A DNA stretch of 32,000 nucleotides from Erysipelotrichaceae bacterium OH741_COT-311 (GCA_003858585.1 RQZE01000007.1:120001-152000); one strand, 5' to 3'; counted from the stretch's first letter, positions 8,107 to 32,000 are shown. Notes: a model not told the origin generated them from the letters alone. A program made the numbers and translations.

Positions 8107-9567
8107 TTATGCAACCATCATTGCAATTGATAAGATAATGATATTTGCAATAGCGATAACAAATAATAACTTCATTACCCATTTTAAGTATGTTGAGTAT
8201 TCAATCTTAGCTGCTCCGATACCACCCATTACAACACCTGAAGTTGGTGTAAACAAGTTGATTAAACCTGAACCAGCACTGAAAATCATAATCATAACAC
8301 TAGCATTGAAGCCTAATGTGTTTGCTAATCCACCCATAACCGGCATTGATAATCCAGCTAATCCTGAAGTAGATGGCACTAAGAAGCTTAATACTAAGTA
8401 TACAATATATGACATTGGTGCAAAGATAAAGCCCGGAACACCTTGTAATAATTTAGAACTTACATCCAAGATATATAAATCCATGTGTGTAGCGTTCATT
8501 ACAATTGTAATACCTCTAGCTGTTGCAATAATTAACGCTACTGATAATAAATCAGCGGCACCAGCCATGAAGTTATCAATAAATTCTTTTTCACTCATTC
8601 TTGCAACCAACGCAACTAAAATAGAAGCGATGATGAACAATGCTGCAAGATCCATGAAGTACCACCAGCCAAGTGGCGTACCAGTTAAACCGGCAGACCA
8701 ACCAAATGCTGCTAAATATGCGTCTTCATTACCACCAAAGATAATGTCTTGGTAGTAAATTAATGAAACAATCATTAATACGAATGTTAATGCAAAGATT
8801 GTTAATACCAATCTATGTTTTGAAGTAAATTCTAAATCTCTGTTTTCATTTTTTGAGAAATGTTCATGCATTACTTCTTGTTCTTGTAATGACAAGATTG
8901 TAGAACCTTTATCACGTTTTACTTTCTTCGCATAACTTAATACAAATAAGATTGCGATAAATGTACTAGTAACCCATAAAATTGCTCCTAAAATCATAAT
9001 TAATGTTGGATTCGGTTCAACCCCTGAGCTTGATAAGGCAGCCATTGCTGCACCTGTTGCAAATGGGTTAATTGTAGAACCTAACACCCCAGTACCAGCT
9101 CCTAATAGTACCGTACCAACTGCAACGATTGAATCAAATCCTGCCGCAACCATTGCTGTTGTAATTAACGCATAGAAACCGATTGTTTCTTCTGCCATAC
9201 CATAAGTTGTACCACCAGCTGAGAATAGAATCATTAATACAACGATTAATACTTCTTCTTTTCCTTTTAATTTCTTAACTAAATGATATACCCCTGCTTC
9301 TAATGCTCCAGTTTTCATAACAATACCAATGAATCCACCGATTGCTAAGATGAAGATAATCAAATCTGAAGCATCTTTAAATCCATTTGGAATTGCCATA
9401 ATAAAATCTGAAAGTTTTGCACCAGTTACTGCTGCAACTTCACCTCCAATTGCCGGATCAATTGCTTGACCATTTAGTAATAGTGAAATTAAGCAAATAA
9501 CACCCATTACTAAAATCAAGATTGAAAAGGCAGATAGAGACGATTTCTTTTTCTTTTGAGTAGCCAT
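8107..9567 (-). CDS. arcD: YfcC/DcuC-type polytopic membrane transporter, probable arginine/ornithine antiporter of the ADI operon
   Basis: 486 aa, highly hydrophobic with many predicted TM helices and a basic N-terminus. It is the last gene of arcA-arcB-arcC-X. The substrate is assigned from context only. Confidence 0.7.
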   Translation of the reverse strand: MATQKKKKSSLSAFSILILVMGVICLISLLLNGQAIDPAIGGEVAAVTGAKLSDFIMAIPNGFKDASDLIIFILAIGGFIGIVMKTGALEAGVYHLVKKLKGKEEVLIVVLMILFSAGGTTYGMAEETIGFYALITTAMVAAGFDSIVAVGTVLLGAGTGVLGSTINPFATGAAMAALSSSGVEPNPTLIMILGAILWVTSTFIAILFVLSYAKKVKRDKGSTILSLQEQEVMHEHFSKNENRDLEFTSKHRLVLTIFALTFVLMIVSLIYYQDIIFGGNEDAYLAAFGWSAGLTGTPLGWWYFMDLAALFIIASILVALVARMSEKEFIDNFMAGAADLLSVALIIATARGITIVMNATHMDLYILDVSSKLLQGVPGFIFAPMSYIVYLVLSFLVPSTSGLAGLSMPVMGGLANTLGFNASVMIMIFSAGSGLINLFTPTSGVVMGGIGAAKIEYSTYLKWVMKLLFVIAIANIIILSIAMMVA

Positions 9568-9584
9568 ACCCTTCCTCCTTTAGC

Positions 9585-10520
9585 TTACTTCTTTATAATA
9601 GTTCCTGTTTCACCACTTAAAGCTGCTTTTGCTCTTTGCAATGAAGTAATTAACGCAACCCCATTGCTAGTAGCTTCTACAAACTCAAGACAAGCTTCCA
9701 CTTTAGGTAACATAGACCCTGGAGCAAAGTGTCCTTCACCAATATATTGTTTAGCTTGCTCAACGTTCATTTCAGCTAGTGATTCCTGATTAGGTTTATT
9801 GTAGTTGATACATACTCGATCTACTGCAGTTAGAATCACTAACATATCTGCTTTAACATCTAAAGCAAGTTTTGCACTAGAACGATCTTTATCAATAACA
9901 GCTGCAACACCTTTTAAGCCATCTTCGGTTTCTACAACCGGAATACCGCCACCACCAACTGTGATTACGATATCACCCAAACTTACAAGTTGTTCAACTA
10001 CTTTTAATTCAACAATTTTTGTAGGTTTTGGGCTTGGTACTACACGACGATATCCACGTCCTGCATCTTCAACAAAGATAAATCCTTTTTCAGCAGCTGT
10101 TTTTTCAGCTTCTTCTTTTGTTAAAAACGATCCAATTGGTTTTGTAGGTTTTGCAAACGCCGGATCTTGAGGATCTACAACTACTTGTGTCACTACACAA
10201 GCAACTTCTTTTGCAACCTTACGTTTCGCAAGTTCTCTTTGAATAGATTGTGTTAAATGATAACCAATGTATCCTTGAGACATTGCACCACATTCCGGAA
10301 ATGGCATGTATGGAGTTTTACCACCATTCAGTGATGAAAACTCCATTGCATTATTGATCATACCTACTTGTGGACCATTTCCATGACCAATAATTACATC
10401 ATATTCTTCTGCCAAATCTACAATTGTTTTTGCAGTTTCTTTTACTAATTCTAATTGTTCTTCCGGAGAATTACCTAACGCATTTCCTCCTAAGGCGATT
10501 ACTAATCTCTTTCTTTCCAT
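9585..10520 (-). CDS. arcC: Carbamate kinase
   Basis: 311 aa. N-terminal VIALGGNAL and HGNGPQVG motifs. Located in the ADI operon. Confidence 0.93.
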   Translation of the reverse strand: MERKRLVIALGGNALGNSPEEQLELVKETAKTIVDLAEEYDVIIGHGNGPQVGMINNAMEFSSLNGGKTPYMPFPECGAMSQGYIGYHLTQSIQRELAKRKVAKEVACVVTQVVVDPQDPAFAKPTKPIGSFLTKEEAEKTAAEKGFIFVEDAGRGYRRVVPSPKPTKIVELKVVEQLVSLGDIVITVGGGGIPVVETEDGLKGVAAVIDKDRSSAKLALDVKADMLVILTAVDRVCINYNKPNQESLAEMNVEQAKQYIGEGHFAPGSMLPKVEACLEFVEATSNGVALITSLQRAKAALSGETGTIIKK

Positions 10521-10532
10521 AGCGACTCTTTT

Positions 10533-11537
10533 CTACTTTAATGTAGCATACATACAAGCTTTAATTGTATGCATACGATTTTCTGCTTCATCAAACACAC
10601 GACTGTGTTTACCTAAGAATACATCATCACTTACTTCCATGCCATTTAAGTCATACTTATCACCAAATTTAGCATGAATTTCTTTCCCGATTGTTGTATT
10701 TAAATCATGGAATGATGGTAAACAGTGTAAGAAGATAACATCTTTATCTGCTTGATCAATTACGTTTTGAGTCACTTTATAAGGACTTAATAATTTAATT
10801 CTTTCTTCCCAAACTGAATCAGGTTCACCCATTGATACCCAAATATCTGTATAGATTGCATGAGCACCCTTTACTGCTTCAGAAACATTTTCAGTAAATT
10901 CAACTTTTGTTCCATGTAGTTTTGCAAATTCTTTTGCTCTTTCTACTAATTTTGGATCAGCCCATAATTCTTTTGGACCACAACCAACATAATCCAACCC
11001 TAATTTTGCGCAAACAACCATTAATGAGTTAGAAACATTATTACGACAATCACCCATAAACACAAACTTTAAGCCTTTTAAACGACCAAAGTTTTCTTTG
11101 ATTGTTAACATATCAGCAATCATTTGTGTTGGGTGGAAATCATCTGTTAAACCATTCCAAACAGGAACTCCAGAATATTTTGCTAGAGCTTCCACTTGTT
11201 TTTGATCAAACCCACGATATTCAATACCATCATAGAAACGACCTAATACTTTAGCAGTATCTTCAATAGACTCTTTTTTACCCATTTGGCTAGAACCTGG
11301 ATCTAAGTATGTAACACCCATACCTAAGTCCATACCAGCTACTTCAAATGAGCAACGAGTACGAGTTGATGTTTTTTCAAACAACAACACAATGTTTTTA
11401 CCCTCTAAATAACGGTGAGGAGTACGAGCAAGTTTAAGTTTTTTAAACTGTTCACTTAAATCAATTAAATAATTAATTTCTTCAGGCGTATAATCTGCTA
11501 AAGCTAATAAACTGCGTCCTTGTAAATTTACTGGCAT
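10533..11537 (-). CDS. arcB: Ornithine carbamoyltransferase (catabolic by context)
   Basis: 334 aa. Carbamoyl-phosphate motif STRTRCSFE, plus HPTQ and HCLP motifs. Confidence 0.94.
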   Translation of the reverse strand: MPVNLQGRSLLALADYTPEEINYLIDLSEQFKKLKLARTPHRYLEGKNIVLLFEKTSTRTRCSFEVAGMDLGMGVTYLDPGSSQMGKKESIEDTAKVLGRFYDGIEYRGFDQKQVEALAKYSGVPVWNGLTDDFHPTQMIADMLTIKENFGRLKGLKFVFMGDCRNNVSNSLMVVCAKLGLDYVGCGPKELWADPKLVERAKEFAKLHGTKVEFTENVSEAVKGAHAIYTDIWVSMGEPDSVWEERIKLLSPYKVTQNVIDQADKDVIFLHCLPSFHDLNTTIGKEIHAKFGDKYDLNGMEVSDDVFLGKHSRVFDEAENRMHTIKACMYATLK

Positions 11538-11568
11538 AATTTTTATCCTCTTCTTTCTGTTAATTTAC

Positions 11569-12798
11569 TTAGTCTTCACGTACAAGTGGCATACTCATAC
11601 AACGAGGTCCACCACGACCAACACATAAGTTATCTGCATCTAATTCTAATACTTCAAAGCCATTTTCTTTTAAATATTTATTTGTAACATAGTTGCGTTT
11701 GTAAACAACAATCTTACCCGGAGCAATTGTTAATGTATTTGAACCATCGTTCCATTGTTCTCTTTCAGCAGCAATTGGATCTCCAGCTCCACATGCAAAT
11801 AATCTAACTTTATCTAAGCCCATGAATTTAGCTAAGATTTCACTTAACTCACCATCATGTTCTTCAATTTTAACATCATGATTTTCACGATCTGCAGTAA
11901 TTGCAAATACTTGTAATGTACCCATGATTCCCGGATGATATGTAAATGCATCATGGTCAATTTGAGTAAACACTGTATCTAAGTGCATCATCGCTCTATT
12001 ATTAGGAATGTTAAATGCTAAGATAGTTTCAATCTTATTTTCCGGATTTTCATAGAACATTTTCATTGCTAATGCTTGAATCGCATCTGCTTGTGTTCTT
12101 TGAGAAATACCAATGAACAATAATTTTTCATTAACGTTTAATACGTCTCCACCTTCGATATGGAATTTATTGTTTCGGCCATATAAATCAGGTACTTTTC
12201 CTGCATATTCAGGATGGAATCTGAAAATGTAATCTGCATAAATTGTTTCACGATTTCTTGTTACAGAATACATTCTGTTAATTACCGCACCATTACCTAC
12301 ACTTGAAAATGGGTCACGAGTAAAGTATAAGTTAGGCATTGGATTTAATAATAAGTAAGATTCTTTATCAATTTTATCTACTAAGAAATTAGTTTTAATA
12401 TCACCTAATTCAGCAAATGTAACACCTGCCATAGTTTTTAAAACTAAATCTTTATTGTTAGTAAATTTATTAAAATATTCTTTTAGAATTTTATGATATG
12501 TTTCAGTATGAATATCACCTTCAGTAATAAACTGATCTAAAAATTGTTCTTTAATTTCAGGATGAGCATCTAATGTCTCAGCCATTAAATCTTCTAAATA
12601 TACAACTTCTACACCGTTATCTCTTAAAATTTGAGCAAAACGATCATGTTCTTCTTGAGCTTTTACCAAGTCAGGAATATCATCAAATAATAATTCTGAT
12701 AAAGTTGTTGGAGTTAAGTTTAATAATTCTTCTCCAGGTCTATGTAGTAATACTTTTTTAAGTGGTTTAATTTCACTTGTTACATGAATTTTTGTCAT
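11569..12798 (-). CDS. arcA: Arginine deiminase
   Basis: The ORF track starts at 12870. I place the start at ATG 12798 (MTKIHVTSEIKPLKKVLLHRPG...) because AAAAGGAGAAC lies 5 nt upstream. The C-terminal catalytic Cys context GGPRCMSMPL is present. Confidence 0.93.
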   Translation of the reverse strand: MTKIHVTSEIKPLKKVLLHRPGEELLNLTPTTLSELLFDDIPDLVKAQEEHDRFAQILRDNGVEVVYLEDLMAETLDAHPEIKEQFLDQFITEGDIHTETYHKILKEYFNKFTNNKDLVLKTMAGVTFAELGDIKTNFLVDKIDKESYLLLNPMPNLYFTRDPFSSVGNGAVINRMYSVTRNRETIYADYIFRFHPEYAGKVPDLYGRNNKFHIEGGDVLNVNEKLLFIGISQRTQADAIQALAMKMFYENPENKIETILAFNIPNNRAMMHLDTVFTQIDHDAFTYHPGIMGTLQVFAITADRENHDVKIEEHDGELSEILAKFMGLDKVRLFACGAGDPIAAEREQWNDGSNTLTIAPGKIVVYKRNYVTNKYLKENGFEVLELDADNLCVGRGGPRCMSMPLVRED

Positions 12799-12930
12799 TT
12801 CGTTCTCCTTTTCTTTTTTATGACATGATGTAAGTAACGGCCGAATTCTCACACCACATAGTTCATACATCTATTTTAAACTTCAATTCATGTAGTTGTA
12901 GGTCAAAAACATAAAATTTTATTGTAAATT

Positions 12931-12960
12931 TAGATAAAAAACGACCAAAACGGTCGTTTA
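12931..12960 (-). terminator. Rho-independent terminator of argS
   Basis: The minus strand reads AAACGACC-GTTTT-GGTCGTTT followed by TTTATC. The stem overlaps the argS stop codon. Confidence 0.75.
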
Positions 12961-14598
12961 CATCTTTTCAGGCGCACTAATCCCTACTAAATCTAAGGCA
13001 TTTGCTAATGTAATCTTTGTCGCAACTAACAAACCTAAACGTTGATTCGTTAGTTCCGGATTACTTGCATCCATGATTTTATGAGCTCCATAAAAACTAT
13101 GGAAATAACTTGCTAATTTTTGAATATAGTTACAAATCTTATTTGGAGAACGTGTGGCAGCAGCATCACCAACCACACCAACAAATTCATTGATATACTT
13201 TAATAAATCAACTTCTTTTTCACTAGTTAATAAATCATATTTTTCAAGTGATTTAAATTCACCAGCTTGTCTTAAAATGGAACAGATACGCGCATGCGCA
13301 TATTGAGCATAGTACACCGGATTTTCATTTGTCTTTTTACGTGCTAAGCCTAAGTCAAAATCTAAATGAGTGTCCACAGCACGACTTACAAAGAAATAAC
13401 GAGCTGCATCAATACCGATATCATCGCATAATTCACGAATAGTAATGGCATTCCCTGTACGCTTACTCATCTTCACTTCCGCACCGTTTTCAACAAGACG
13501 AACCATTTGAATAATATCTACTTCTAAATCTTTTGGACCATAGCCACAAGCTTGGATGGCTGCCACCATACGAGGAATATACCCATGGTGATCTGCACCC
13601 CAAAGATTTACTAATTTTGTATAACCACGTTCAAATTTATACATGTGATTTGCAATATCCGGTGTTAAGTATGTTAATGTGCCATCTGCTTTACGCAATA
13701 CACGATCTTTATCATCGCCCCATTTTGTTGACTTAAACCATAAAGCACCATCTTCTTCATATGTTAAACCCATTTTATTCATGCGTTCAATGATTTCATC
13801 CACACGACCATCATCGTAAAGACCTTGCTCACTTACCCAAGAATCAAAATCACAACGATAGTAATCTAAATCTTCTTTGATTTTTTCCAATTCTTTATTA
13901 CGTCCGGCTTCCTTAAAGAATTCAATACGTCCTTCTTCTTTATGTAGCCAAATATCTCCAAGCTCTTTAGCAAGTTCAATACCGATTTCTTTGACATCTT
14001 GTCCCATGTAACCATCTTCCGGAATATCTACATGAACCCCAAAATATTCAGCATAACGAGCATAAACCGATTTACCTAAGTTAATCATTTGAGCTCCGGC
14101 ATCATTAATGTAATACTCTCTTAAGCAATCATACCCACTCTTCATTAATAAGCGACAAATACAATCACCCCAAGCAGCACCACGAGCATGACCCAAATGC
14201 AAGTTTCCCGTTGGATTCGCACTAACATATTCCACCAAAATGCGTAAGCCATCACCGGTGTTATTTTTACCATAATCACTACCTTCATTAATAACAGTAT
14301 TAATAACAGCAGCTAATGATTCTTTTTTCATCCAGAAGTTAATAAAACCAGGACCTGCAATTTCAATCTTATCTAAATCTTCTACTGTTTGTTCTAGCTC
14401 AGCCTTAATTTCATTTGCAATCATTGCCGGTGCCTTCTTACATACTTTTGCCAAACGCATCGCAATGTTTGTAGAATAATCACCATTGGTATTATCTTTA
14501 GGGATTTCTACCATAATTAAAGAATCATCTTCTACTTGATATAGTTTTAAAACGGCATCTTTAATATTTGTTTTTAATTTTTGATCAATCTTACTCAT
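12958..14598 (-). CDS. argS: Arginine--tRNA ligase
   Basis: The class I HIGH motif reads NPTGNLHLGH and the KMSKS motif reads MSKRTG. I place the start at ATG 14598 (MSKIDQ...) because GGAGGG lies just upstream; the track's earlier ATG sits inside that RBS. Confidence 0.95.
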   Translation of the reverse strand: MSKIDQKLKTNIKDAVLKLYQVEDDSLIMVEIPKDNTNGDYSTNIAMRLAKVCKKAPAMIANEIKAELEQTVEDLDKIEIAGPGFINFWMKKESLAAVINTVINEGSDYGKNNTGDGLRILVEYVSANPTGNLHLGHARGAAWGDCICRLLMKSGYDCLREYYINDAGAQMINLGKSVYARYAEYFGVHVDIPEDGYMGQDVKEIGIELAKELGDIWLHKEEGRIEFFKEAGRNKELEKIKEDLDYYRCDFDSWVSEQGLYDDGRVDEIIERMNKMGLTYEEDGALWFKSTKWGDDKDRVLRKADGTLTYLTPDIANHMYKFERGYTKLVNLWGADHHGYIPRMVAAIQACGYGPKDLEVDIIQMVRLVENGAEVKMSKRTGNAITIRELCDDIGIDAARYFFVSRAVDTHLDFDLGLARKKTNENPVYYAQYAHARICSILRQAGEFKSLEKYDLLTSEKEVDLLKYINEFVGVVGDAAATRSPNKICNYIQKLASYFHSFYGAHKIMDASNPELTNQRLGLLVATKITLANALDLVGISAPEKM

Positions 14599-14610
14599 CT
14601 TACCCTCCAT

Positions 14611-14654: not shown

Positions 14655-14731
14655 TGGCGCGCCCAGTAGGACTTGAACCCGCAACCTTTTGATCCGTAGT
14701 CAAACGCTCTATCCAGTTGAGCTATGGGCGC
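14655..14731 (-). tRNA. tRNA-Arg (anticodon ACG), copy 1, CCA encoded
   Basis: Reverse complement: GCGCCCATAGCTCAACTGGATAGAGCGTTTGACTACGGATCAAAAGGTTGCGGGTTCAAGTCCTACTGGGCGCGCCA. It folds as a cloverleaf with anticodon loop CUACGGA and discriminator G73. There is one C-A mismatch in the T stem. Identical to copy 2. Confidence 0.93.
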
Positions 14732-14773: not shown

Positions 14774-14990
14774 AAAAAAAATCTCTTTTTACAAAAGAGA
14801 CGAAAAAACCGCGGTACCACTCTAATTGCCAGTATAAAAACTGACCACCTCTTTTTTAACGCAAAGTTACGCCTACCTTACTTTCATACAGCAGGATCTC
14901 CAAAGCTCGTTTCATCTAATCACCATATCTTCTTCCACCATACAAGACTCGCTTTTATGTCACTTAGATTACTACTCTTTTTCATCGATA
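14774..14990 (-). promoter_or_regulatory. T-box leader RNA (tRNA-sensing transcription attenuator) with intrinsic terminator
   Basis: Minus-strand elements, in order: K-turn AUCGAUGA; S-turn strand AGUAGUA; AG bulge AGCGAGUC; distal loop UGGUGGAAG; specifier strand GAAACGAG (14913..14906); stem III. The T-box motif AGAGUGGUACCGCGG (14823..14809) forms the antiterminator AGAG[UGGUACC]GCG..CGUCUCU. The terminator is UCUCUUUU-GUA-AAAAGAGA plus U8 (14802..14774). Confidence 0.9.
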
Positions 14991-14995
14991 CATCA

Positions 14996-15085: not shown

Positions 15086-15161
15086 TGGTGGTCCCGGCCG
15101 GAATCGAACCAGCGACACAAGGATTTTCAGTCCTTTGCTCTACCGACTGAGCTACAGGACC
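15086..15161 (-). tRNA. tRNA-Phe (GAA)
   Basis: Reverse complement: GGTCCTGTAGCTCAGTCGGTAGAGCAAAGGACTGAAAATCCTTGTGTCGCTGGTTCGATTCCGGCCGGGACCACCA. Anticodon loop CUGAAAA. Confidence 0.95.
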
Positions 15162-15163
15162 AT

Positions 15164-15240
<77 letters not shown>

Positions 15241-15271
15241 ATATTGTGTAACAGACGTTACATAAATTGAA

Positions 15272-15362
15272 TGGCGGAGGAACTGGGATTCGAACCCAGG
15301 CGCCAGTTTCCCGACCTACCGGTTTTCAAGACCGGACCCTTCAACCACTTGGGTATTCCTCC
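15272..15362 (-). tRNA. tRNA-Ser (UGA), long variable arm
   Basis: Reverse complement: GGAGGAATACCCAAGTGGTTGAAGGGTCCGGTCTTGAAAACCGGTAGGTCGGGAAACTGGCGCCTGGGTTCGAATCCCAGTTCCTCCGCCA. Confidence 0.94.
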
Positions 15363-15379
15363 ATAATTTGTCAATTGAT

Positions 15380-15456
15380 TGGTGGACCCTGTAGGACTCG
15401 AACCTACGACCAACCGGTTATGAGCCGGTAGCTCTGACCAACTGAGCTAAGGGTCC
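15380..15456 (-). tRNA. tRNA with CAU anticodon, probably tRNA-Ile2 (lysidine type); elongator Met not excluded
   Basis: Reverse complement: GGACCCTTAGCTCAGTTGGTCAGAGCTACCGGCTCATAACCGGTTGGTCGTAGGTTCGAGTCCTACAGGGTCCACCA. The body resembles ileX-type tRNAs as I recall them. The anticodon alone cannot decide. Confidence 0.8.
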
Positions 15457-15465
15457 TCACTAAAA

Positions 15466-15542
15466 TGGTAGCGAGGGTGGGACTCGAACCCACGACCTTC
15501 CGGGTATGAACCGAACGCTCTAGCCAACTAAGCTACCTCGCC
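15466..15542 (-). tRNA. Elongator tRNA-Met (CAU)
   Basis: Reverse complement: GGCGAGGTAGCTTAGTTGGCTAGAGCGTTCGGTTCATACCCGGAAGGTCGTGGGTTCGAGTCCCACCCTCGCTACCA. It has a G1-U72 pair and a UUCAUAC loop, like Bacillus elongator Met. Confidence 0.88.
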
Positions 15543-15555
15543 AGCTTAATTTAAC

Positions 15556-15632
15556 TGGTCGGGATGACAGGATTTGAACCTGCGACCCCTTGATCCCAAA
15601 TCAAGTGCACTACCAAGCTGTGCTACATCCCG
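15556..15632 (-). tRNA. tRNA-Pro (UGG)
   Basis: Reverse complement: CGGGATGTAGCACAGCTTGGTAGTGCACTTGATTTGGGATCAAGGGGTCGCAGGTTCAAATCCTGTCATCCCGACCA. Confidence 0.94.
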
Positions 15633-15642
15633 TTAAATTAAA

Positions 15643-15719
15643 TGGCGCGCCCAGTAGGACTTGAACCCGCAACCTTTTGATCCGTAGTCAAACGCTCTAT
15701 CCAGTTGAGCTATGGGCGC
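15643..15719 (-). tRNA. tRNA-Arg (ACG), copy 2, first gene of the 7-tRNA operon
   Basis: The 77-nt sequence is identical to 14655..14731. Confidence 0.93.
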
Positions 15720-15746
15720 ACATACACTAGTTAACAGTGCTTAATT

Positions 15747-15775
15747 ATGATAACAAATTTTAATCGTTATTGCAA
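15747..15775 (-). promoter_or_regulatory. Candidate promoter of the Arg-Pro-Met-Ile2-Ser-fMet-Phe tRNA operon (TTGCAA-17-TATCAT, TG extended)
   Basis: The minus strand reads TTGCAATAACGATTAAAATTTGTTATCAT, about 28 nt upstream of tRNA-Arg copy 2. Confidence 0.5.
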
Positions 15776-15825
15776 GTTATTTTTGCAAATTAATTAAAAT
15801 AATTTTTATCACCAAACTTAGAAAA

Positions 15826-15853
15826 ATTAAAAAAAATCTTTCTTCAAAGATTC
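15826..15853 (-). terminator. Rho-independent terminator of the Cys-Leu tRNA unit
   Basis: The minus strand reads AATCTTT-GAAG-AAAGATT followed by TTTTTTTAATTTTT, 12 nt after tRNA-Leu. Confidence 0.75.
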
Positions 15854-15864
15854 TTTTAACGAAA

Positions 15865-15951
15865 TGGTGGGGATGAAGGGACTTGAACCCTTACGATGTT
15901 TCCATCACCGGATTTTAAGTCCGATGCGTCTACCTATTCCGCCACATCCCC
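15865..15951 (-). tRNA. tRNA-Leu (UAA), long variable arm
   Basis: Reverse complement: GGGGATGTGGCGGAATAGGTAGACGCATCGGACTTAAAATCCGGTGATGGAAACATCGTAAGGGTTCAAGTCCCTTCATCCCCACCA. Confidence 0.94.
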
Positions 15952-15955
15952 ATTC

Positions 15956-16029
15956 TGGAGGTTCCTATCAGATTTGAACTGATGATCACAGAGTTGCAGT
16001 CTATTGCCTTACCACTTGGCTAAGGAACC
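15956..16029 (-). tRNA. tRNA-Cys (GCA)
   Basis: Reverse complement: GGTTCCTTAGCCAAGTGGTAAGGCAATAGACTGCAACTCTGTGATCATCAGTTCAAATCTGATAGGAACCTCCA. Confidence 0.93.
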
Positions 16030-24113: not shown

Positions 24114-24127
24114 GTTCTATTTTTTTA
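24101..24127. terminator. Bidirectional hairpin terminator shared by convergent genes
   Basis: AATAGAACC-ATA-GGTTCTATT followed by TTTTTT on the plus strand, with AAAA before the stem on the plus strand (UUUU after it on the minus). Each stem arm contains the last codons and the stop of one of the two genes. Confidence 0.7.
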
Positions 24128-25205
24128 GTTCAATGATACGTTCCCAAGGCAATTCTTTTTTACCAAAGTGTCCATAGTTTGTTGTAGAAGCATAAATCGG
24201 TTTTAATAAATCAAGCTCTTGGATAATATTTGATACACTGAAATCAAAATTTTCATTGATAATACGAACAATTTCTTCATTTGAAATTTTACCTGTATTA
24301 AATGTTTCTACATTTATAGATAATGGATTCGCCATACCAATCGCATAAGATACTTGAATTGCCACTTTACCAGCAAGATTAGCAGCAACAATATTCTTTG
24401 CCACATAACGACAATAATATGCAGCACTACGATCTACTTTCGATGGATCTTTACTACTAAAACATCCCCCACCAATCGGACAATAACCACCATAACTATC
24501 CACTACAATTTTTCGTCCTGTTGTTCCACTGTCTCCAAAAGAACCACCTAAAATAAATGATCCAGATGGATTGATGTAAAACTTGCTTTGTGCATCTAAA
24601 TACACATCAGGAATTACTTCATTAATCACTTCTTTAATAATGATTTCTTTTAATTCCGTTTGTGAAATCTTAGCGTCATGTTGACATGAAACAACCACGG
24701 TATCTACACGTTGTGCAACACCATCTTCATATTCAACTGTCACCTGTGTTTTTCCATCCGGTTTTAACATAGGATTTAAACGACGTACTTCTTCTAAACG
24801 TTTTGCTAGTTTGTGAGCTAAATCAATGGCAAGTGGCATAAAGTCTTCTGTTTCATTACTTGCATAACCAAACATAATCCCTTGATCCCCGGCACTCATA
24901 CCTTCGTGATTTACTGCATTGTAAATTTCATTGGATTGTTTATTTACTTTCACTAACACTTCATACTCTTCTTCATAACCAATCTTTTTTAATACATCTT
25001 TTGCAATTTGTGCATAATCAATGTTTGCTTTTGTATTGGCTTCTCCATAGATTAAGATAAAGTCATCTTTAATTGTACACTCTACTGCCATTTTGCTGTT
25101 TGGATCTTGCCTTAAAGCTTCATCCAAAATATGATCGCTTACCCAGTCACATATCTTATCCGGATGTCCACTGGTTACTGATTCGCTTGTAAAAAAATAT
25201 TTCAT
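24117..25205 (-). CDS. metK: S-adenosylmethionine synthetase
   Basis: 362 aa. Motifs: FTSESVTSGHPDK, GAGDQG-like SAGDQGIMFGYA, DPSKVDRSAAY. It sits downstream of an S-box leader. Confidence 0.93.
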   Translation of the reverse strand: MKYFFTSESVTSGHPDKICDWVSDHILDEALRQDPNSKMAVECTIKDDFILIYGEANTKANIDYAQIAKDVLKKIGYEEEYEVLVKVNKQSNEIYNAVNHEGMSAGDQGIMFGYASNETEDFMPLAIDLAHKLAKRLEEVRRLNPMLKPDGKTQVTVEYEDGVAQRVDTVVVSCQHDAKISQTELKEIIIKEVINEVIPDVYLDAQSKFYINPSGSFILGGSFGDSGTTGRKIVVDSYGGYCPIGGGCFSSKDPSKVDRSAAYYCRYVAKNIVAANLAGKVAIQVSYAIGMANPLSINVETFNTGKISNEEIVRIINENFDFSVSNIIQELDLLKPIYASTTNYGHFGKKELPWERIIELKK

Positions 25206-25427: not shown

Positions 25428-25859
25428 TTATTTATCTTTTAATGTAGCTAAGATTTCCGTTAACAATTCTTCTGTTGTCGGTCCTTTTTCTTCAACAACT
25501 TCTTCCACTACTTCTTCTTTACGTTTCATCGCATTCATACCTTTAATTAACATAAATACAATAAATGCAATAATGATGAAGTTAATAATTGTAACAAGTA
25601 ACGTACCGACACCAATCACTACTGCAGCCGATGTAACTTCTCCTGCTGCATCAACTACTGCCGGTTTTAATACGATATTGAATTGTGATAAATCAATACC
25701 GCCAATTAAATACCCAATGATTGGCATAAATATATCATTAACTAAACTTGTTGTAATCTTCCCAAATGCAGTAGCAATAACTACCCCAATTGCCATGTCG
25801 ATTACATTACCTCTCATGGCAAATTCTTTAAATTCTTTTAAAAATCCGTTTTTCTTCAT
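25428..25859 (-). CDS. mscL: Large-conductance mechanosensitive channel
   Basis: Start placed at ATG 25859 (MKKNGFLKEFKEFAMRGNVIDMAIGVVI...) behind GGAGG. The N-terminus is classic MscL, with two TM helices and a charged C-terminal helix. Confidence 0.93.
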   Translation of the reverse strand: MKKNGFLKEFKEFAMRGNVIDMAIGVVIATAFGKITTSLVNDIFMPIIGYLIGGIDLSQFNIVLKPAVVDAAGEVTSAAVVIGVGTLLVTIINFIIIAFIVFMLIKGMNAMKRKEEVVEEVVEEKGPTTEELLTEILATLKDK

Positions 25860-25990
25860 AGTGACCTCCACATTTTTATTATAACAACGAATAAAAAAGA
25901 TTGCACTTGATATTATTTATGGAAAATAATGACTTCTTAGATTGTTTCACAAAGAAGATTATGACATAATGAATAAAAGGAGTATATATT

Positions 25991-26488
25991 ATGAATAATA
26001 AAACCATAAAGAGAATTGAAAAACTACCTACTACTGTAGAAGAATTTCAATCTTTACCACAGTTTGATCGCAAAAGTCCATATGATACTGCCATTTTAGT
26101 CATTGTAGCGTTATTAAATTACAAAGATAATCCGGAATTAGCCTTTGATATGATTAATGTCTTAAAAGGACCTAATCCACTAAGTCCTTATGAAAAACAA
26201 TTCTTACACGATCGTTTAAGAGACAAAACACATGTTGTCAGCTCTTTTATCAAAGAAACTTCTCCAAATAATGATTATCAATATCCATTACCATTTCACA
26301 TTGAAGCCTTCGATAACCCTTATTCATTTGTCAATGAAGGATATGCTAAAATCTTCTTAACATCTTCTGGTGCCGATAGTCCAAGACCGATTGTTTTACG
26401 ATTAGGGAAAGATCAAAATTGGTATTTATATGAAATTTTGTGTCTATCTAATGTTCGTCCACCGGAATCAACAAACTTTTGGGCATAA
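25991..26488 (+). CDS. Hypothetical protein, no recognisable motif
   Basis: 165 aa, soluble-looking, behind the RBS AAAGGAG. Followed by a strong terminator. Confidence 0.6.
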   Translation: MNNKTIKRIEKLPTTVEEFQSLPQFDRKSPYDTAILVIVALLNYKDNPELAFDMINVLKGPNPLSPYEKQFLHDRLRDKTHVVSSFIKETSPNNDYQYPLPFHIEAFDNPYSFVNEGYAKIFLTSSGADSPRPIVLRLGKDQNWYLYEILCLSNVRPPESTNFWA

Positions 26489-26490
26489 AC

Positions 26491-26527
26491 AAAATACTTC
26501 TTACCTTGTAAGAAGTATTTTTTATTT
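26491..26527. terminator. Bidirectional terminator between convergent genes
   Basis: AAATACTTCTTAC-CTT-GTAAGAAGTATTT, a 13-bp stem, with TTTTATTT after it on the plus strand and A-rich sequence before it. Confidence 0.85.
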
Positions 26528-27736
26528 CATCAATGCTTTTGCAAAGCTGGTGCCATTTTGTACTTCTTCAACCCCAAAGAATTCAGCAACCGTTGCACCT
26601 ACATCACTTAAAGAAGTACGAGTCGATAAGCAAGTTCCTTCCACTCCATGTTTGTACACTAAAATAGGTACAACTTCTCTTGTATGACGATTATGACCAA
26701 TGTTTGGATCATTGCCATGATCTGCCATAATCAACAAGACATCCTCTTTACCTAATGCTTCCATAATCTTGCCAATATGTTTATCTGATAATTCTAATAA
26801 TTCTTTATAACGCTCAGAATTTTGACTATGCCCTGCTAAATCGGTTTCTTGAACATTGGTGCAAATAAACCCATGTTTTAATTCTTTGACATATTGTAGC
26901 GTGATGGTTAATACCTCTTCAGTTGGAACACAAGAAATCGATGTACCTTTTTCATTGATGACAATATCCGCTACTTTTCCAATTAAGACTACCGGAATAG
27001 TATGCTTACCTAAAATAGTCACTACTTGCGTATTTGGATCTACACCATACCCTAAATGACGACATTGATATCCTTGTTCATAAGACTTTGAATTCGCTGC
27101 ATGAATACCAATAAAATTTTCACCTTTCACTTGTTGTGCATTTAAAATATCTTGTAAATGATTACCGGTACCGCCAAAGACAATCACACGATTCACCTTA
27201 GCTATTTCACGTACTAAACGTCCAATCTTTAGTTCATGTTCAAAAGACATGTAGTCGAGTGGCGCTGTTAGATTATATGCCATCCCAACATCTGCATCAA
27301 TGTTATCCGCCACAGTACAATACCCGTCAACTAAAAGATATCTTAATCCTTCATAATGTCTGACTTCTACTTTATGACCATGATGTTCTAAATGTTCTTT
27401 TACATCATCTACAACTTCTTGAAACGGTACTACTTTCGGTTTTTTAGGTAAGGTTCCCATGATTTCTTGATGACCCATGAAGGTATCTGCACCAAAATGC
27501 ATTAACTCACTAATACCATAATTGGCAGTTGCACTAAATTTCATATTAGCACTTTCTTTTCCAAACGCATTCATTAATCCTAACTTCTCTAAATTAGGTA
27601 ATTTCAAATCCGGAAAATCATGTAAAATGCTACCTAATGTAGAACTGCTTTGATCTTCCGGACGTACGATTGCGGTATCTTCCATCGCACGCATACCAAA
27701 GCCATCCAACACTATAACAACAAATTTTTTATTCAT
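26522..27736 (-). CDS. YhfW-like phosphopentomutase-family metalloenzyme (alkaline-phosphatase superfamily)
   Basis: 404 aa. N-terminal metal-ligand context VVIVLDGFGMRAMEDT. C-terminal MADHGNDP...GHNRHTREVVP, as in DeoB-type mutases. An 8-nt ATGAATAA overlap with the upstream gene. Confidence 0.8.
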   Translation of the reverse strand: MNKKFVVIVLDGFGMRAMEDTAIVRPEDQSSSTLGSILHDFPDLKLPNLEKLGLMNAFGKESANMKFSATANYGISELMHFGADTFMGHQEIMGTLPKKPKVVPFQEVVDDVKEHLEHHGHKVEVRHYEGLRYLLVDGYCTVADNIDADVGMAYNLTAPLDYMSFEHELKIGRLVREIAKVNRVIVFGGTGNHLQDILNAQQVKGENFIGIHAANSKSYEQGYQCRHLGYGVDPNTQVVTILGKHTIPVVLIGKVADIVINEKGTSISCVPTEEVLTITLQYVKELKHGFICTNVQETDLAGHSQNSERYKELLELSDKHIGKIMEALGKEDVLLIMADHGNDPNIGHNRHTREVVPILVYKHGVEGTCLSTRTSLSDVGATVAEFFGVEEVQNGTSFAKALMK

Positions 27737-28889
27737 ATAGTTTTTCTCCTAAACTATTATATATACCAATGATTTCAGGCTTATTCTCTTTTAAGCCCTT
27801 CAGTAAACACACTTGACTCCTTGTTACAAATATTTGAAAGCGAAATGCCATAATTACCGTATCAGAAACATGACTTACACCGGCTAATCCAAAATGATAA
27901 TCTATACTTTCAGGATCCATATTTAAAACTTCATGTATGTTACAATCCTCAAAACGATTACCCACCAAAGCTTCCTTTACATGGGAACGACGATAATATC
28001 CTCCACCATAACAGTAACTATTCCCTTTATAGTGATGTGAAATTTCACTGACATAAATGACACAAGGTTTCTCCATTTCATCTTGATACGCATGAATTGG
28101 TGTAGAACCACTTAATCCATGCCCCGGTTCAGCACTGGAAATTGAATACTGTACCATTTGGTTTAATAACGAAGTACAAGTACTCGATGGTGCATTTACA
28201 TGGATATCCTTCAGTCCATTGTCTTGTAATAACTTTTTAGCTTGAAGTAATGTATCTAGATTTGATGTTGACTTTATCTCTTTTTGATCTTTATCATAAA
28301 GAAAACATGGAAATGAAGTTATTCCTTTAATCTTGACATGTGATAATTCTTTTACATAATCGATTACCTCTTGCAGTTGATTTAAGAAAAATCCCCCTGT
28401 TTGCCCACTATAAATAACATCTTGATCATTGACTACCCTCAATAAAAGAGAAAGGGTTTTTTCACTTTTTTTAGCACATTCATTTAGCTCTTTGATTTTT
28501 TCTTTGCTATAAACTGTAAAATATTTGCAGTTATAATTCACGAACGTTTGTAATAACGCTTTTGGTATTTGCACTAAATGACCAACATTGGCGATTGGAA
28601 TATGGTGCTTCATCATAATCATAGCTTCTTTAAAATCAACCACCACCGCTCCCGAATAACCAAGCTTAATCAACTCTTTGGCAAGATACGGATTTCTTCC
28701 AACCTGTTTTAACATAAAATACAATTCTATATTATGATGTTGAGCTTCTTTTAACATCTTTAAAGCATTATCAAGAAATGTATCAACATCAATAAGATAG
28801 GTATCCGGCAAAATTTTTTCTTGTTGATGAAGTTGAAAACCAAGTTCTACTAACGCTTTATTTTTTTCGATGGTTTTATTTAGAAACAT
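27729..28889 (-). CDS. YhfX-like PLP-dependent enzyme (alanine-racemase N-terminal TIM-barrel fold)
   Basis: 386 aa. The size matches E. coli YhfX and the gene neighbours the YhfW-like and YhfS-like genes. Candidate PLP-Lys context: YFMLKQVGRNPYLA. Assignment is by recalled family resemblance and context. Confidence 0.65.
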   Translation of the reverse strand: MFLNKTIEKNKALVELGFQLHQQEKILPDTYLIDVDTFLDNALKMLKEAQHHNIELYFMLKQVGRNPYLAKELIKLGYSGAVVVDFKEAMIMMKHHIPIANVGHLVQIPKALLQTFVNYNCKYFTVYSKEKIKELNECAKKSEKTLSLLLRVVNDQDVIYSGQTGGFFLNQLQEVIDYVKELSHVKIKGITSFPCFLYDKDQKEIKSTSNLDTLLQAKKLLQDNGLKDIHVNAPSSTCTSLLNQMVQYSISSAEPGHGLSGSTPIHAYQDEMEKPCVIYVSEISHHYKGNSYCYGGGYYRRSHVKEALVGNRFEDCNIHEVLNMDPESIDYHFGLAGVSHVSDTVIMAFRFQIFVTRSQVCLLKGLKENKPEIIGIYNSLGEKLYE

Positions 28890-29985
28890 ACTTGATACCT
28901 TCTAAACTTTCTTTTAACACACGAATAATTGTATCCGCACCTGCTCGATTTGGATTGATACGAATTGCACGCTTAGCTAATAATGGATTTCCGGATGCAA
29001 ACGTTGCAGATATTTTATAAAACAACGGACACATTTCATACTTCGATTCGGCACCCACCGGATAAGGAAGTGCTCCTAAGGTTTGGGCATAGTTTAAAAT
29101 ATCTTGTGCAATATCTTCGTAAAACTCGACCAATAAAATTTTTGATTGTCCATTTACGATATAAGCACCTTTGACTTCCGGAAGCTCTTTTTGAATCTGT
29201 AAACGTCGATGACATTCTTCAATCGTCTGTCCTTGAATGGCTAATGAGACCGGTGCATACACCAAACCACGCAATACTTCTAATGCTTCCCAACCCTGAC
29301 ACTGCAAGCCACCTGAATACATCTGTTTAGCTAATGCATCAATATATGCAGCTTTGCCAACAATACAACCGATGCCCTCAGGTCCTAATAATTTAAACGT
29401 TGAAAAACAAGATAAATCAGCTTTAAGTTCAACTCCAATGCCCTTTACCTTCATCACCGCATAATTATCATCCGTAATAATCGCTACGTTTGATTGCCTT
29501 CTTATCACATCAATTACTTCTTGCATAGAATAAGAATCTTCGACGTTTTGTCTTGTGTATTGTATTAATACCCCCTTAATTTCCGGATGTTTTTCTAAGG
29601 TTTGTTTCACTTCTTCAAGATTATTATAATCGGCTTTTACCACACGCAATCCAAGCATAGAAATAGATGTTTGGGTCGTTGGATAAATCGGTGCCTTATG
29701 TACTAAAAGGGTATCATTGCAAGATAAACATGCATGCAAAGCATAACGAATGGCATTGGTTCCACTTCCTCGAACAAGCAACGCTTTTTCAGCATTGAAA
29801 AACTCTGCAATTACCTTTTCAACCTTTTGAGTTGTTTCAGGCTTATTTAATCCCTTTACAACTCCTAAATCTCCACATGCTAGGATTTGACTTCCAGTAA
29901 AGTGATGCATAATACAGTCAATGAAACGAAATTGATAGCTCATCGCTGTTTCTAATGAAATACTTTCTAATGGAACTGTTTTCAT
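28876..29985 (-). CDS. YhfS-like fold-type-I PLP-dependent enzyme (aminotransferase/lyase-like)
   Basis: Start placed at ATG 29985 (MKTVPLESISLE...) behind AAAGGATGA; the track's longer ORF would overlap the upstream gene. Candidate PLP-Lys in CFSTFKLLGPEG. Confidence 0.65.
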   Translation of the reverse strand: MKTVPLESISLETAMSYQFRFIDCIMHHFTGSQILACGDLGVVKGLNKPETTQKVEKVIAEFFNAEKALLVRGSGTNAIRYALHACLSCNDTLLVHKAPIYPTTQTSISMLGLRVVKADYNNLEEVKQTLEKHPEIKGVLIQYTRQNVEDSYSMQEVIDVIRRQSNVAIITDDNYAVMKVKGIGVELKADLSCFSTFKLLGPEGIGCIVGKAAYIDALAKQMYSGGLQCQGWEALEVLRGLVYAPVSLAIQGQTIEECHRRLQIQKELPEVKGAYIVNGQSKILLVEFYEDIAQDILNYAQTLGALPYPVGAESKYEMCPLFYKISATFASGNPLLAKRAIRINPNRAGADTIIRVLKESLEGIKYVSK

Positions 29986-29992
29986 CTTACAT

Positions 29993-30979
29993 TCATCCTT
30001 TCTTAAACCCACCTTCAAAATAGGCAGAGAGATTATCAAAATAACAAGAAACCAATGGATCGGCTTCTTCCACTAAGGAAGGGACATACCTAAGCATGGT
30101 TGCAATCTTACTCATTTTACTTTCACATATCAACAACCATCCAGTAGCCAAGTCCTTCCTAGGTATCACGATGGCAGTTGCATTTGCCATATTTACCACT
30201 CTAAGATAACCTTTATTGGCTCTTTTTTGTATCGCTTTGGTAGTTTCATTAAAATGACCAAAAATACTATCACCAAAGCCATATACATCAATAGGACCTT
30301 CTTTTACAATAAGAAATGTACAATTCACTAATAGATCTTTAAGAAAAGGCAATAAAGTCTCTCTAGGTGATAGGGAATCTAATAAAGAGATAGACGTTGT
30401 TGGAAAGGGAAAGGAATATGCTTCATTTGTATCCTTAAAAATAACAACATCATGTTCAAGCTCTTTATTCATAAGAAAAATCTCAATGGTTTTCATTAAC
30501 AACGAATAATCCTTACACATAAAACCAAGGGATGGATAAAAAAGAATGCCATCTGTAGATTGCTTTTGAAATCTTTGAACATGATTTGTCATAAGTAAAG
30601 GTGATATAAATCCAAATAAATGAAGGCTTATGGCTGGAGCTAATACACTTCCACCTCCATCGGTTGCAATGGCAATATCATTGATGTTTAAAAAAACATT
30701 AATGGCACTTCCACTGCTACTGCCACTCATATAACGACCTGTAATTGGATTGATTAGCTGCAAATCAATAGCGCGACCATGAAAACTACATGTATCAATG
30801 GTATGCAAGGTATAATTTCTCGCTTCTAAAATCGTTATCATTTCAAAGGGAATCACTTCTGTATTTTTAACTCCAACCAAAATACTTCCCTCTTCAACAG
30901 TATCTTTACATAGTTTATAAACAGAGTGATATGGATTTAATATTGCAAGTTTATGTTTTAAAGCATTGGTATTACGCAT
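29993..30979 (-). CDS. Short amidase-signature-like protein
   Basis: GSSSGSAINV...IATDGGGSVLAPA parallels the GGSSGGSAA...GSDTGGSIRxPA motif seen in gatA in this window. A possible catalytic Lys lies in VGVKN. I prefer ATG 30979 (an ATGCGTAA overlap with the php stop) over the track's TTG at 31006, but the start is uncertain. Confidence 0.6.
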   Translation of the reverse strand: MRNTNALKHKLAILNPYHSVYKLCKDTVEEGSILVGVKNTEVIPFEMITILEARNYTLHTIDTCSFHGRAIDLQLINPITGRYMSGSSSGSAINVFLNINDIAIATDGGGSVLAPAISLHLFGFISPLLMTNHVQRFQKQSTDGILFYPSLGFMCKDYSLLMKTIEIFLMNKELEHDVVIFKDTNEAYSFPFPTTSISLLDSLSPRETLLPFLKDLLVNCTFLIVKEGPIDVYGFGDSIFGHFNETTKAIQKRANKGYLRVVNMANATAIVIPRKDLATGWLLICESKMSKIATMLRYVPSLVEEADPLVSCYFDNLSAYFEGGFKKG

Positions 30980-31847
30980 TGAATAAACGCTTTGGATTTT
31001 CTTCAAGAATTTTTTTCAGTGATTCTTCTTTAAATCCTGCCTTCTTTAACATCGGAATAAAGACTTCAAAAAGATAAGCATACCCAATCCCACCTGCATC
31101 TTTTAAATTTGATTTACGAGTAATATCCAAAGAAACTACAACATGATCTACCATGTTACAACGCTCTAGTTCCATTAACATTGCAACACGTTGTTCATCC
31201 GGTAAGTAATTATTTTTTCCAATGGTATCAAATCCTACACATACACCTGTCTTAATAATTTCTTTAATGGTATCAATATCACCACTTAAATCCATGTGAC
31301 CGATGACAATTTTATGTTTATCTACACCTTGTTGGATTAAATATTGTGCTTGTTTTAAACCTAAAGTACCTAATGTAGTATGTGTAGTAATGAGTTTCCC
31401 TGTCTTTTTATGTGCCATAATAGCCGCATCAAATAATTTACGCTCCTGATGACTCCATTCATTTAAACTCGTACCAATTTCACCAATGACTTGTGCTTTT
31501 ACATCAGTATGTTCAATGCCTTCTTCTATTTCTTGAATCATTATCTTCGCCAATTCTTCTGTAGATGTCTTTAAAATAACATCCGGAATGAATGGTTCTT
31601 TATAGCAACCTGTAGAAATTAAAATATTCATATCGGTTTCTTTCGCTACTTGCTGGATAACCTCTAAGTTTCTACCCATACCTATATTTGTTACTTCTAT
31701 TATATTTCTTACACCGTAACGATACAATTCTTTTAACTCATTTATTACTTGTTGAACATTATTGTAATTACAATCATCATTCTTCTTTACTGTCGATAAA
31801 TCCAAATAAAGATGCTCATGCATTAGCGTATATCCATCTTTTAACAT
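30972..31847 (-). CDS. php: Phosphotriesterase-homology protein (amidohydrolase superfamily, PTE family)
   Basis: 291 aa. N-terminal GYTLMHEHLYLDL (HxH metal ligands). Later TTHT, VIGHMD and VSLD motifs are consistent with a binuclear-metal TIM barrel. RBS AGGAGAAG. Confidence 0.85.
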   Translation of the reverse strand: MLKDGYTLMHEHLYLDLSTVKKNDDCNYNNVQQVINELKELYRYGVRNIIEVTNIGMGRNLEVIQQVAKETDMNILISTGCYKEPFIPDVILKTSTEELAKIMIQEIEEGIEHTDVKAQVIGEIGTSLNEWSHQERKLFDAAIMAHKKTGKLITTHTTLGTLGLKQAQYLIQQGVDKHKIVIGHMDLSGDIDTIKEIIKTGVCVGFDTIGKNNYLPDEQRVAMLMELERCNMVDHVVVSLDITRKSNLKDAGGIGYAYLFEVFIPMLKKAGFKEESLKKILEENPKRLFNA

Positions 31848-31858
31848 ATTCTTCTCCT

Positions 31859-31891
31859 AAAAAAGAGCTAGCGAGTAATTCGCTTCGCTCT
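31859..31891 (-). terminator. Terminator-like hairpin inside the yhf-like operon (between the transporter gene and php)
   Basis: The minus strand reads AGAGC-GAA-GCGA-AUUAC-UCGC-UA-GCUCU followed by UUUUU, then the php RBS. Confidence 0.5.
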
Positions 31892-32000
31892 TTATCCTTT
31901 CGCAACAATTGAAACTAAATTTAACACAATCAATAAATTAATGAGCAATCCATAGACAATACATGCCACCGGACCTACTGCTAACTCTACTAACGGTTTC
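31892..32000 (-). CDS. C-terminal fragment of an integral membrane protein, possibly a YhfT-like transporter (5' part outside the window)
   Basis: My translation of the minus strand gives ...KPLVELAVGPVACIVYGLLINLLIVLNLVSIVAKG*. It is hydrophobic. The YhfT-like label rests on position only. Confidence 0.45.
   Translation of the reverse strand, partial: KPLVELAVGPVACIVYGLLINLLIVLNLVSIVAKG

Follow-up and report, generated by a model that had tools for sequence, protein, structure and literature searches.

In Escherichia coli K-12, the php/yhf genes (b3376-b3383, in the order yhfZ-yhfY-yhfX-yhfW-php-yhfU-yhfT-yhfS) constitute one of the larger remaining gene blocks without a function. Three proteins of this cluster were solved by structural genomics more than ten years ago, and no substrate has followed since. 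In this work, we describe a counterpart of the cluster in Erysipelotrichaceae bacterium OH741_COT-311, found in a 32,000-nucleotide stretch of DNA (GCA_003858585.1, RQZE01000007.1:120001-152000; hereafter, the window), where the genes occupy the minus strand from position 26,522 to the window edge at 32,000 and beyond. The cluster is a rearranged and extended member of this known but functionally unsolved group. It comprises the same eight families, the lengths of the enzymes being similar to those in E. coli, but the order here is yhfZ|yhfY-yhfU-yhfT-php-amidase-yhfS-yhfX-yhfW, and the window version has an extra gene for a short amidase as well as a hairpin between the transporter and enzyme genes.

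The likeness to two better described sets of genes, the ula and dga operons of the phosphotransferase system (PTS), is found in functional logic only. Such operons combine a permease of their own with a hydrolase for a phosphorylated ring compound (UlaG, in the L-ascorbate operon ula) and with sugar-phosphate isomerases or epimerases; the dga operon, devoted to D-glucosaminate, employs a SelA-like pyridoxal phosphate (PLP)-dependent ammonia-lyase acting on an amino-aldonate phosphate. In contrast, the yhf cluster is devoid of EIIA, aldolase and decarboxylase. YhfS gives a weak match to the DgaE family (E = 0.0014).

When the proteins of the K-12 yhf region were compared with the window proteins by BLASTP, four of them showed full-length matches, with identities of 45% for Php (over 285 aa), 50% for YhfS, 43% for YhfX and 49% for YhfW, and E-values of 1e-93 to 5e-139. 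Together with the family domains and the PDB matches described below (1BF6/4LEF, 4J8L and 4KBX), these identities bear out the likeness to the uncharacterised E. coli cluster, which an earlier, sequence-only reading of this DNA had proposed.

The first of the enzymes, encoded at 30972-31847 on the minus strand, is a 291-aa hydrolase of the phosphotriesterase (PTE) family (Pfam PTE, 273 bits). Its best NCBIfam model is PRK09875, the model of E. coli Php, at 326 bits, which is below the equivalog cut-off of 486, and its best PDB matches are 1BF6 and 4LEF (E = 1.5e-80). The positions aligned to the E. coli Php residues that we take to be the metal ligands are all kept, namely HxH, the Glu of GEIGTS, the His of THT, the His of GH and the Asp of SLDITR. 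The protein shares the TIM-barrel binuclear-metal family with PTER and with the PTE-family phospho-sugar lactonases MS53_0025 and Lmo2620, the latter reportedly having this activity. However, it belongs to the Php subfamily, it scores 97 bits under the phospho-furanose lactonase model against a cut-off of 630, and PDB entries 3PNZ, 3K2G and 3MSR are distant from it (E = 1e-30 to 1e-26). The same scores bear on the idea of an organophosphate or xenobiotic detoxification locus arranged around a phosphotriesterase, which the PTE family match and the aryldialkylphosphatase structures found at about E = 1e-38 might suggest. Php is far closer (E = 1.5e-80) than the phosphotriesterases, the organophosphate hydrolase model gives 77 bits against a cut-off of 500, and the partner enzymes would make no sense for detoxification. 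The family scores thus exclude this idea, which we regard as highly improbable.

The YhfS-family protein (28876-29985, minus strand, 369 aa from ATG), a fold-type-I PLP enzyme, contains the Pfam domain YhfS-like_C (PF22475, 125 bits) and is matched by Aminotran_5 and Aminotran_1_2 as well; in the PDB, it finds 4J8L with E = 1.8e-110. The YhfX-family protein (27729-28889, minus strand, 386 aa) is a fold-type-III PLP enzyme with an alanine-racemase N-domain (Ala_racemase_N, 54.7 bits), but Ala_racemase_C is absent according to Pfam, the C-terminal part being YhfX-like_C (PF21279, 126 bits), and no alr model of NCBIfam is matched; the sole PDB match is 4KBX (E = 3e-101). The YhfW-family protein (26522-27736, minus strand, 404 aa), a phosphopentomutase-like metalloenzyme, scores 559 bits with PRK12383 (cut-off 254) as compared with 140 bits (cut-off 341) and 174 bits (cut-off 256) with the deoB models TIGR01696 and PRK05362, and PDB phosphopentomutases align to its residues 240-403 only. 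A pairwise alignment shows that the metal and nucleophile motifs DGFG, DTFMGHQEI, QETDLAGH and ADHGNDP are kept. The predicted catalytic residues are intact in Php, in YhfW and in the amidase described below.

Could these simply be housekeeping enzymes (DeoB, alanine racemase, an aminotransferase and a generic amidase) that are adjacent by chance? The generic Pfam domains Metalloenzyme, found in the YhfW-like protein, Ala_racemase_N and Aminotran_5 agree with such a view, but the deoB score of 140 bits against 341, in comparison with 559 bits for PRK12383, as well as the presence of YhfX-like_C and YhfS-like_C, do not. Moreover, the genes overlap, the same set recurs in 80 of the 80 loci listed in a genome scan described below, and the window holds a separate canonical amidase of 469 aa, probably GatA. 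The family-level scores and the conserved neighbourhood thus refute this view, to which we give next to no credence. Since neither a true DeoB, nor an alanine racemase with its C-domain, nor a known aminotransferase was found, the proposed resemblance to the Yhf families is real.

The ninth gene, at 29993-30979 on the minus strand, encodes a hydrolase of 328 aa (from ATG), for which BLASTP found no match in the E. coli yhf cluster. The claim of the sequence-only reading that E. coli has the same protein families thus stands for Php, YhfS, YhfX, YhfW and YhfT, but fails for the amidase. Pfam Amidase covers only 44 residues of the protein (90-133; 29.9 bits against a cut-off of 27), and all NCBIfam amidase models remain far under their cut-offs. 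Nevertheless, the protein has in common with GatA, malonamidase E2, FAAH and ClbL the Lys-cisSer-Ser triad and the core motif GSSSG...DGGGS, which aligns with the GatA signature. The predicted triad residues Lys38, Ser87 and Ser111 are invariant in an alignment of 35 close members, in which many other columns are invariant too, and also in eight distant ones. Ser87 and Ser111 are 24 residues apart, as is canonical for amidase-signature triads. The differences lie in the length, which is about 130 residues shorter than usual (328 aa versus ~410-490 in the usual amidase-signature enzymes), and in the motif GGGSVLAPA, as opposed to GGS[IV]RxPA. An AlphaFold 2 model of the protein (predicted local distance difference test score, pLDDT, 91.2) was submitted to Foldseek, which returned malonamidase E2, GatA and ClbL with E = 1e-9 to 1e-8, query-normalised template-modelling (TM) scores of 0.56-0.63 and ~13% identity. 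According to the model, the short hydrolase has the amidase-signature fold. When 1.84 billion representative proteins were searched with a profile of this family, 345 matched, the full-length members being of 300-390 aa, and judged by their sequences the short amidases are a small discrete family, well apart from ordinary amidases. An ordinary one is encoded elsewhere in the window, at 1180-2882 on the minus strand; this is the probable GatA of 469 aa (Pfam Amidase, 395 bits), and a 97-aa open reading frame (ORF) upstream of it may be GatC.

To see the company the short amidase keeps, we scanned the genomes of ~185,000 species with the amidase as a seed; figures for loci refer to 80 listed of the 261 species in which a relative was found. 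In all 80 loci, the amidase gene stands beside homologues of yhfZ, yhfY, yhfU, yhfT, php, yhfS, yhfX and yhfW, in four arrangements. A fifth arrangement, Z-Y-U-T-P-S-X-W-A (P, php; A, amidase), was found separately, a short contig has the order U-T-A-S-X-W, and in a Coriobacteriia metagenome-assembled genome (MAG) a 300-aa member of the family without a Pfam match occupies the same slot. The constant presence beside yhf genes in 80/80 listed loci and in at least five orders shows that the amidase is a genuine component of the cluster and an obligate partner of the yhf genes in its non-E. coli versions. Clustering of 656 flanking ORFs revealed no conserved kinase, aldolase or EIIA, and only two flanking families recurred, one of diverged PRD proteins and the other of small membrane proteins with a zinc ribbon. 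In loci of the order Z..T-U-P-X-A-S-W (L013 5345-5722 and 23 others), a conserved protein of ~127 aa with an N-terminal CxxC...CxxC zinc ribbon and transmembrane segments is encoded between yhfZ and the diverged PRD gene, and several loci of this order carry a second php/yhfS-like pair after yhfW.

The window ends within yhfT, and the upstream half of the cluster was read from a public contig (L002) that is identical to the window along 6389 shared nucleotides. Its gene order is yhfZ, a promoter-like site, and then yhfY-yhfU-yhfT-hairpin-php-amidase-yhfS-yhfX-yhfW. YhfZ (L002 6914-7837) comprises the Pfam domains HTH_41 and YhfZ_C, and YhfY (L002 7911-8258) is, according to Pfam, a stand-alone PRD protein; the genes of YhfU (DUF2620, PF10797) and YhfT (PF10941) lie directly 5' of php, the full YhfT being of 436 aa (526 bits on Pfam YhfT). 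Because L002 matches the window and carries yhfZ, yhfY, yhfU and yhfT, all eight E. coli genes are present, reordered, with one extra. The expectation of the sequence-only reading that YhfU and a regulator would be found upstream of 32000 was thus confirmed. The spacer between yhfZ and yhfY contains a putative promoter with a perfect consensus match, TTGACA-16-TATAAT (12/12, L002 7848-7875), and the interval between zwf and yhfZ (L002 6834-6890) contains a terminator-like hairpin after zwf together with a weak promoter-like site. These promoter-like sites and the terminator-like hairpin suggest that yhfZ is transcribed alone, with the eight genes from yhfY to yhfW making up one operon. The six-gene operon proposed from the window therefore holds as to its tight coupling but not as to its count. 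The neighbours differ as well: the frl operon adjoins the E. coli cluster, but not this one, and genes of the oxidative pentose-phosphate pathway (6PGL, 6PGD and G6PD) are situated immediately upstream here, both in L002 and in L003. The genome closest to ours is an Erysipelotrichaceae MAG, with 95% identity in the amidase.

YhfU adjoins YhfT in every gene arrangement seen. Sequence searches with both proteins against the PDB gave only noise, and Pfam LacAB_rpiB did not match YhfU. A structural model built from a protein 98% identical to the L002 YhfU (pLDDT 93) had RpiB structures as its best fold matches (TM 0.66-0.71, E = 1.7e-4 at best), and the invariant Cys53 of YhfU with its Gly-rich loop, GACNTGGGG, was aligned to the catalytic Cys66 of E. 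coli RpiB.

Additional indications of a role came from the surroundings of the related genes. Two full-length relatives of the amidase, the most divergent in its family (L091 9001-10152 and L092 5138-6268) and both with the catalytic triad intact, lie outside yhf clusters, at the ends of operons: one is placed after an ABC sugar transporter, an FGGY kinase and a ribulose-phosphate 3-epimerase, and the other after a short-chain dehydrogenase/reductase, an FGGY kinase, LacAB_rpiB, a dehydrogenase, HPr and a class II aldolase. In one lineage, genes for HPr and Enzyme I directly follow the Z-Y-U-T-P-S-X-W-A cluster (L095 10117-12030, L096 4379-6292). The distant amidases in sugar clusters, the adjacency of HPr/Enzyme I, the PRD protein and the predicted RpiB-like fold of YhfU argue for a sugar/PTS link. 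With moderate confidence, we suppose that the cluster specifies a catabolic route, inducible by its substrate and linked to the PTS, in which a nitrogen-bearing and probably N-acylated sugar derivative is broken down through phosphorylated intermediates. The sequence-only reading had ventured a catabolic route for an amino-acid or amino-sugar-phosphate derivative, and the new context evidence favours the sugar-derivative version of it.

Candidate substrates of such a route include N-acylated amino sugars, amino-aldonates or their lactones, and conjugates of a sugar with an amino acid. YhfZ, which combines a GntR-like helix-turn-helix with a solute-binding-protein-like domain, would sense the compound at the putative promoter 5' of yhfY, and the stand-alone PRD protein YhfY would couple expression to the phosphorylation state of the PTS. 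YhfT would import the compound, while YhfU, with its predicted RpiB/EIIB-like fold, may either relay phosphate to the substrate or isomerise the resulting sugar phosphate. Because no kinase is conserved in the flanks, phosphorylation during uptake would be the parsimonious source of a phosphorylated substrate for YhfW. The short amidase might then strip an N-acyl or amide group, thereby providing the free amine needed by the PLP enzymes, and Php might open a lactone, ester or amide bond. YhfW would shift the phosphate, YhfX would epimerise the amino centre, and YhfS would deaminate or eliminate, such that a keto-acid phosphate could enter central metabolism.

Several points weigh against this proposal. 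Each chemical step is put forward by analogy. YhfS is about as similar to lyases as to desulfurases and aminotransferases, in each case weakly (E = 1e-8 to 1e-3), and the amidase is missing from the E. coli cluster, which manages without it. No EIIA is encoded in the cluster. The likeness of YhfU to RpiB is at the fold level only (hhalign probability 0.5-7%), and a lactose EIIB structure comes 32nd among its fold matches, with a weak TM of 0.46. In hhalign comparisons, no significant similarity was obtained for YhfT-UlaA, YhfU-UlaB or YhfU-GatB, and a PTS-permease role of YhfU and YhfT, to which the PRD protein, the constant U-T adjacency and the HPr and Enzyme I genes beside one cluster point by context, is therefore only putative. 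A more specific version of the proposal is offered tentatively, as a possibility that we consider doubtful: YhfT as the channel and YhfU as the phospho-cysteine carrier of a new PTS-coupled permease feeding an undescribed catabolic pathway, with a hitherto unnoticed, sugar-dedicated branch of the amidase-signature superfamily unmasking N-acylated amino-sugar derivatives for the two PLP enzymes.

The hydrolases leave room for another chemistry. PTE-family relatives hydrolyse phospho-sugar lactones, as reported by Korczynska et al. 2014, but the mammalian relative PTER is a hydrolase of N-acetyltaurine and N-acetyl-amino compounds (PMC11374699). A non-sugar route is therefore conceivable, for instance one degrading a basic amino acid in N-acylated or lactam form, in which the amidase and Php would open amide or lactam bonds, YhfX would racemise, YhfS would transaminate, and YhfW, a phosphatase or phosphotransferase in this case, would act on a phospho-amino acid instead of a sugar phosphate. 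Two PLP enzymes alongside two candidate amide hydrolases would suit it, the only weak named likenesses of YhfX are to ornithine racemase and diaminopimelate decarboxylase, and the operon adjoining the E. coli cluster, frl, is that for fructoselysine. However, such a route would account poorly for the PRD regulator in the cluster and the HPr and Enzyme I genes beside one relative, and likewise for the predicted RpiB-like fold of YhfU, the phosphopentomutase-like family of YhfW and the distant amidases found in clusters with sugar kinases, epimerases, isomerases and aldolases. We consider it unlikely, and prefer the route for a nitrogen-bearing sugar derivative.

The spread of the cluster can be viewed in two ways. 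Its carriers include such common gut genera as Holdemania, Dielma, Enterocloster, Hungatella, Lacrimispora and Faecalibaculum; the proposed substrate is therefore probably abundant in the gut. On the other hand, a cluster widespread in gut anaerobes and consisting of a mutase, a racemase and PLP enzymes of the aminotransferase type, which are also typical of amino-sugar biosynthesis, could, by biosynthesis or salvage, supply the cell itself with an unusual amino sugar or cofactor precursor. A dedicated transporter, a regulator with a ligand-binding domain and a PRD protein speak against this possibility, as does the patchy distribution, the amidase version being present in 261 of ~185,000 species; furthermore, no nucleotidyltransferase, glycosyltransferase or ligase is conserved across the 80 listed loci. 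A biosynthetic role is thus, in our estimation, distinctly improbable, and catabolism of a sugar derivative is again preferred. Whatever the chemistry, the suggestion that the pathway is undescribed agrees with the literature: in a full-text search, with most subscription journals outside its scope, no paper giving any yhf gene a substrate was found, incidental mentions of yhfW were uninformative on function, and a paper of January 2026 still places YhfW among uncharacterised proteins.

Within the window, the five ORFs in 26522-32000 on the minus strand are complete, with no internal stops. Upstream of these ORFs lie the last 35 codons and the stop of the YhfT-family membrane protein (31892-32000, minus strand; translation KPLVELAVGPVACIVYGLLINLLIVLNLVSIVAKG*), whose gene runs past the window edge. 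In the order of transcription, 44 nt separate yhfT from php, php overlaps the amidase gene by 8 nt, 7 nt lie between the amidase gene and yhfS, yhfS overlaps yhfX by 14 nt, and yhfX overlaps yhfW by 8 nt. The genes, the membrane-protein fragment and the hairpin are present within the coordinates stated by the sequence-only reading, and the overlaps of 8, 14 and 8 nt with the 7-nt gap are exactly as it had given them. In the program's ORF list, the amidase and YhfS begin farther upstream, at TTG codons, but alignments of homologues favour ATG, the E. coli YhfS alignment beginning at Met19 of the program's YhfS ORF. At its 3' end, the operon is closed by a hairpin with a 14-bp stem (26491-26521), found by a terminator scan as AAAATACTTCTTAC-CTT-GTAAGAAGTATTTT. 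It lies between the yhfW stop (26522) and the end of the DUF6935 ORF (26488), and is common to both convergent genes. Next to the DUF6935 gene itself (25991-26488, plus strand) come those of MscL (25428-25871) and, farther on, of S-adenosylmethionine synthetase (24117-25205).

The junction between yhfT and php contains a stem-loop with a T-run at 31859-31891 (minus strand; AGAGC-GA-AGCGA / TCGCT-A-GCTCT), situated directly 5' of the ribosome-binding site AGGAG of php. The terminator scan matches it, and its folding energy is -15.4 kcal/mol, which is unexceptional in comparison with shuffled sequences (z = -1.55). The hairpin is kept at this junction in most loci of the same order (L004, L007, L008, L056, L067 and L074), with a recurring arm motif GAG[CT]GAAG[CT]G / C[AG]CTTC[AG]CTC in which paired C-G to T-A changes occur at two positions and a G.T wobble is present in L007. 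A conserved hairpin thus parts the transporter half of the operon from the enzyme half. It may act as a leaky terminator, stabilise the 3' end of a transcript or serve as a binding site for a protein. Two other explanations were tried. A dispersed repeat was rejected: there is no second paired copy of the arms in the window, and 1.4 Mb of loci give paired arms at the yhfT|php junction only, save for two imperfect chance pairs. An operator for YhfZ is disfavoured, since a distance of only 44 nt to php is too short for a promoter, a T-run comes directly after the element, and the wobble is tolerated in L007.

Other features of the window lie apart from the cluster. On the minus strand, a T-box leader (14793-14994, 114 bits), a tRNA-Arg(ACG) gene (14655-14731) and the arginyl-tRNA synthetase gene (12958-14610) follow one another in this order, so that the tRNA gene appears to be inside a T-box-controlled transcript. 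Directly downstream of argS, a complete arginine deiminase pathway is encoded at 8107-12870 (minus strand), with genes for arginine deiminase, ornithine carbamoyltransferase, carbamate kinase and a DcuC-family carrier. Nine tRNA genes (Phe, three Met, Ser, Pro, Arg, Leu and Cys) are clustered at 15086-16029 on the minus strand and account for a local rise in GC content to 45%.

The presence of the php/yhf cluster in Firmicutes would not surprise a specialist. What is new is the amidase as an obligate partner of the yhf genes, the tie of the amidase family to sugar catabolism, the predicted RpiB-like fold of DUF2620, the HPr and Enzyme I genes beside one related cluster, and the conserved hairpin between the transporter and enzyme halves. 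The small hydrolase with its intact triad points to a masked substrate, N-acylated or amide-linked, and the Firmicute versions narrow the candidate substrates to nitrogen-bearing sugar derivatives. These added constraints make an old question more testable.

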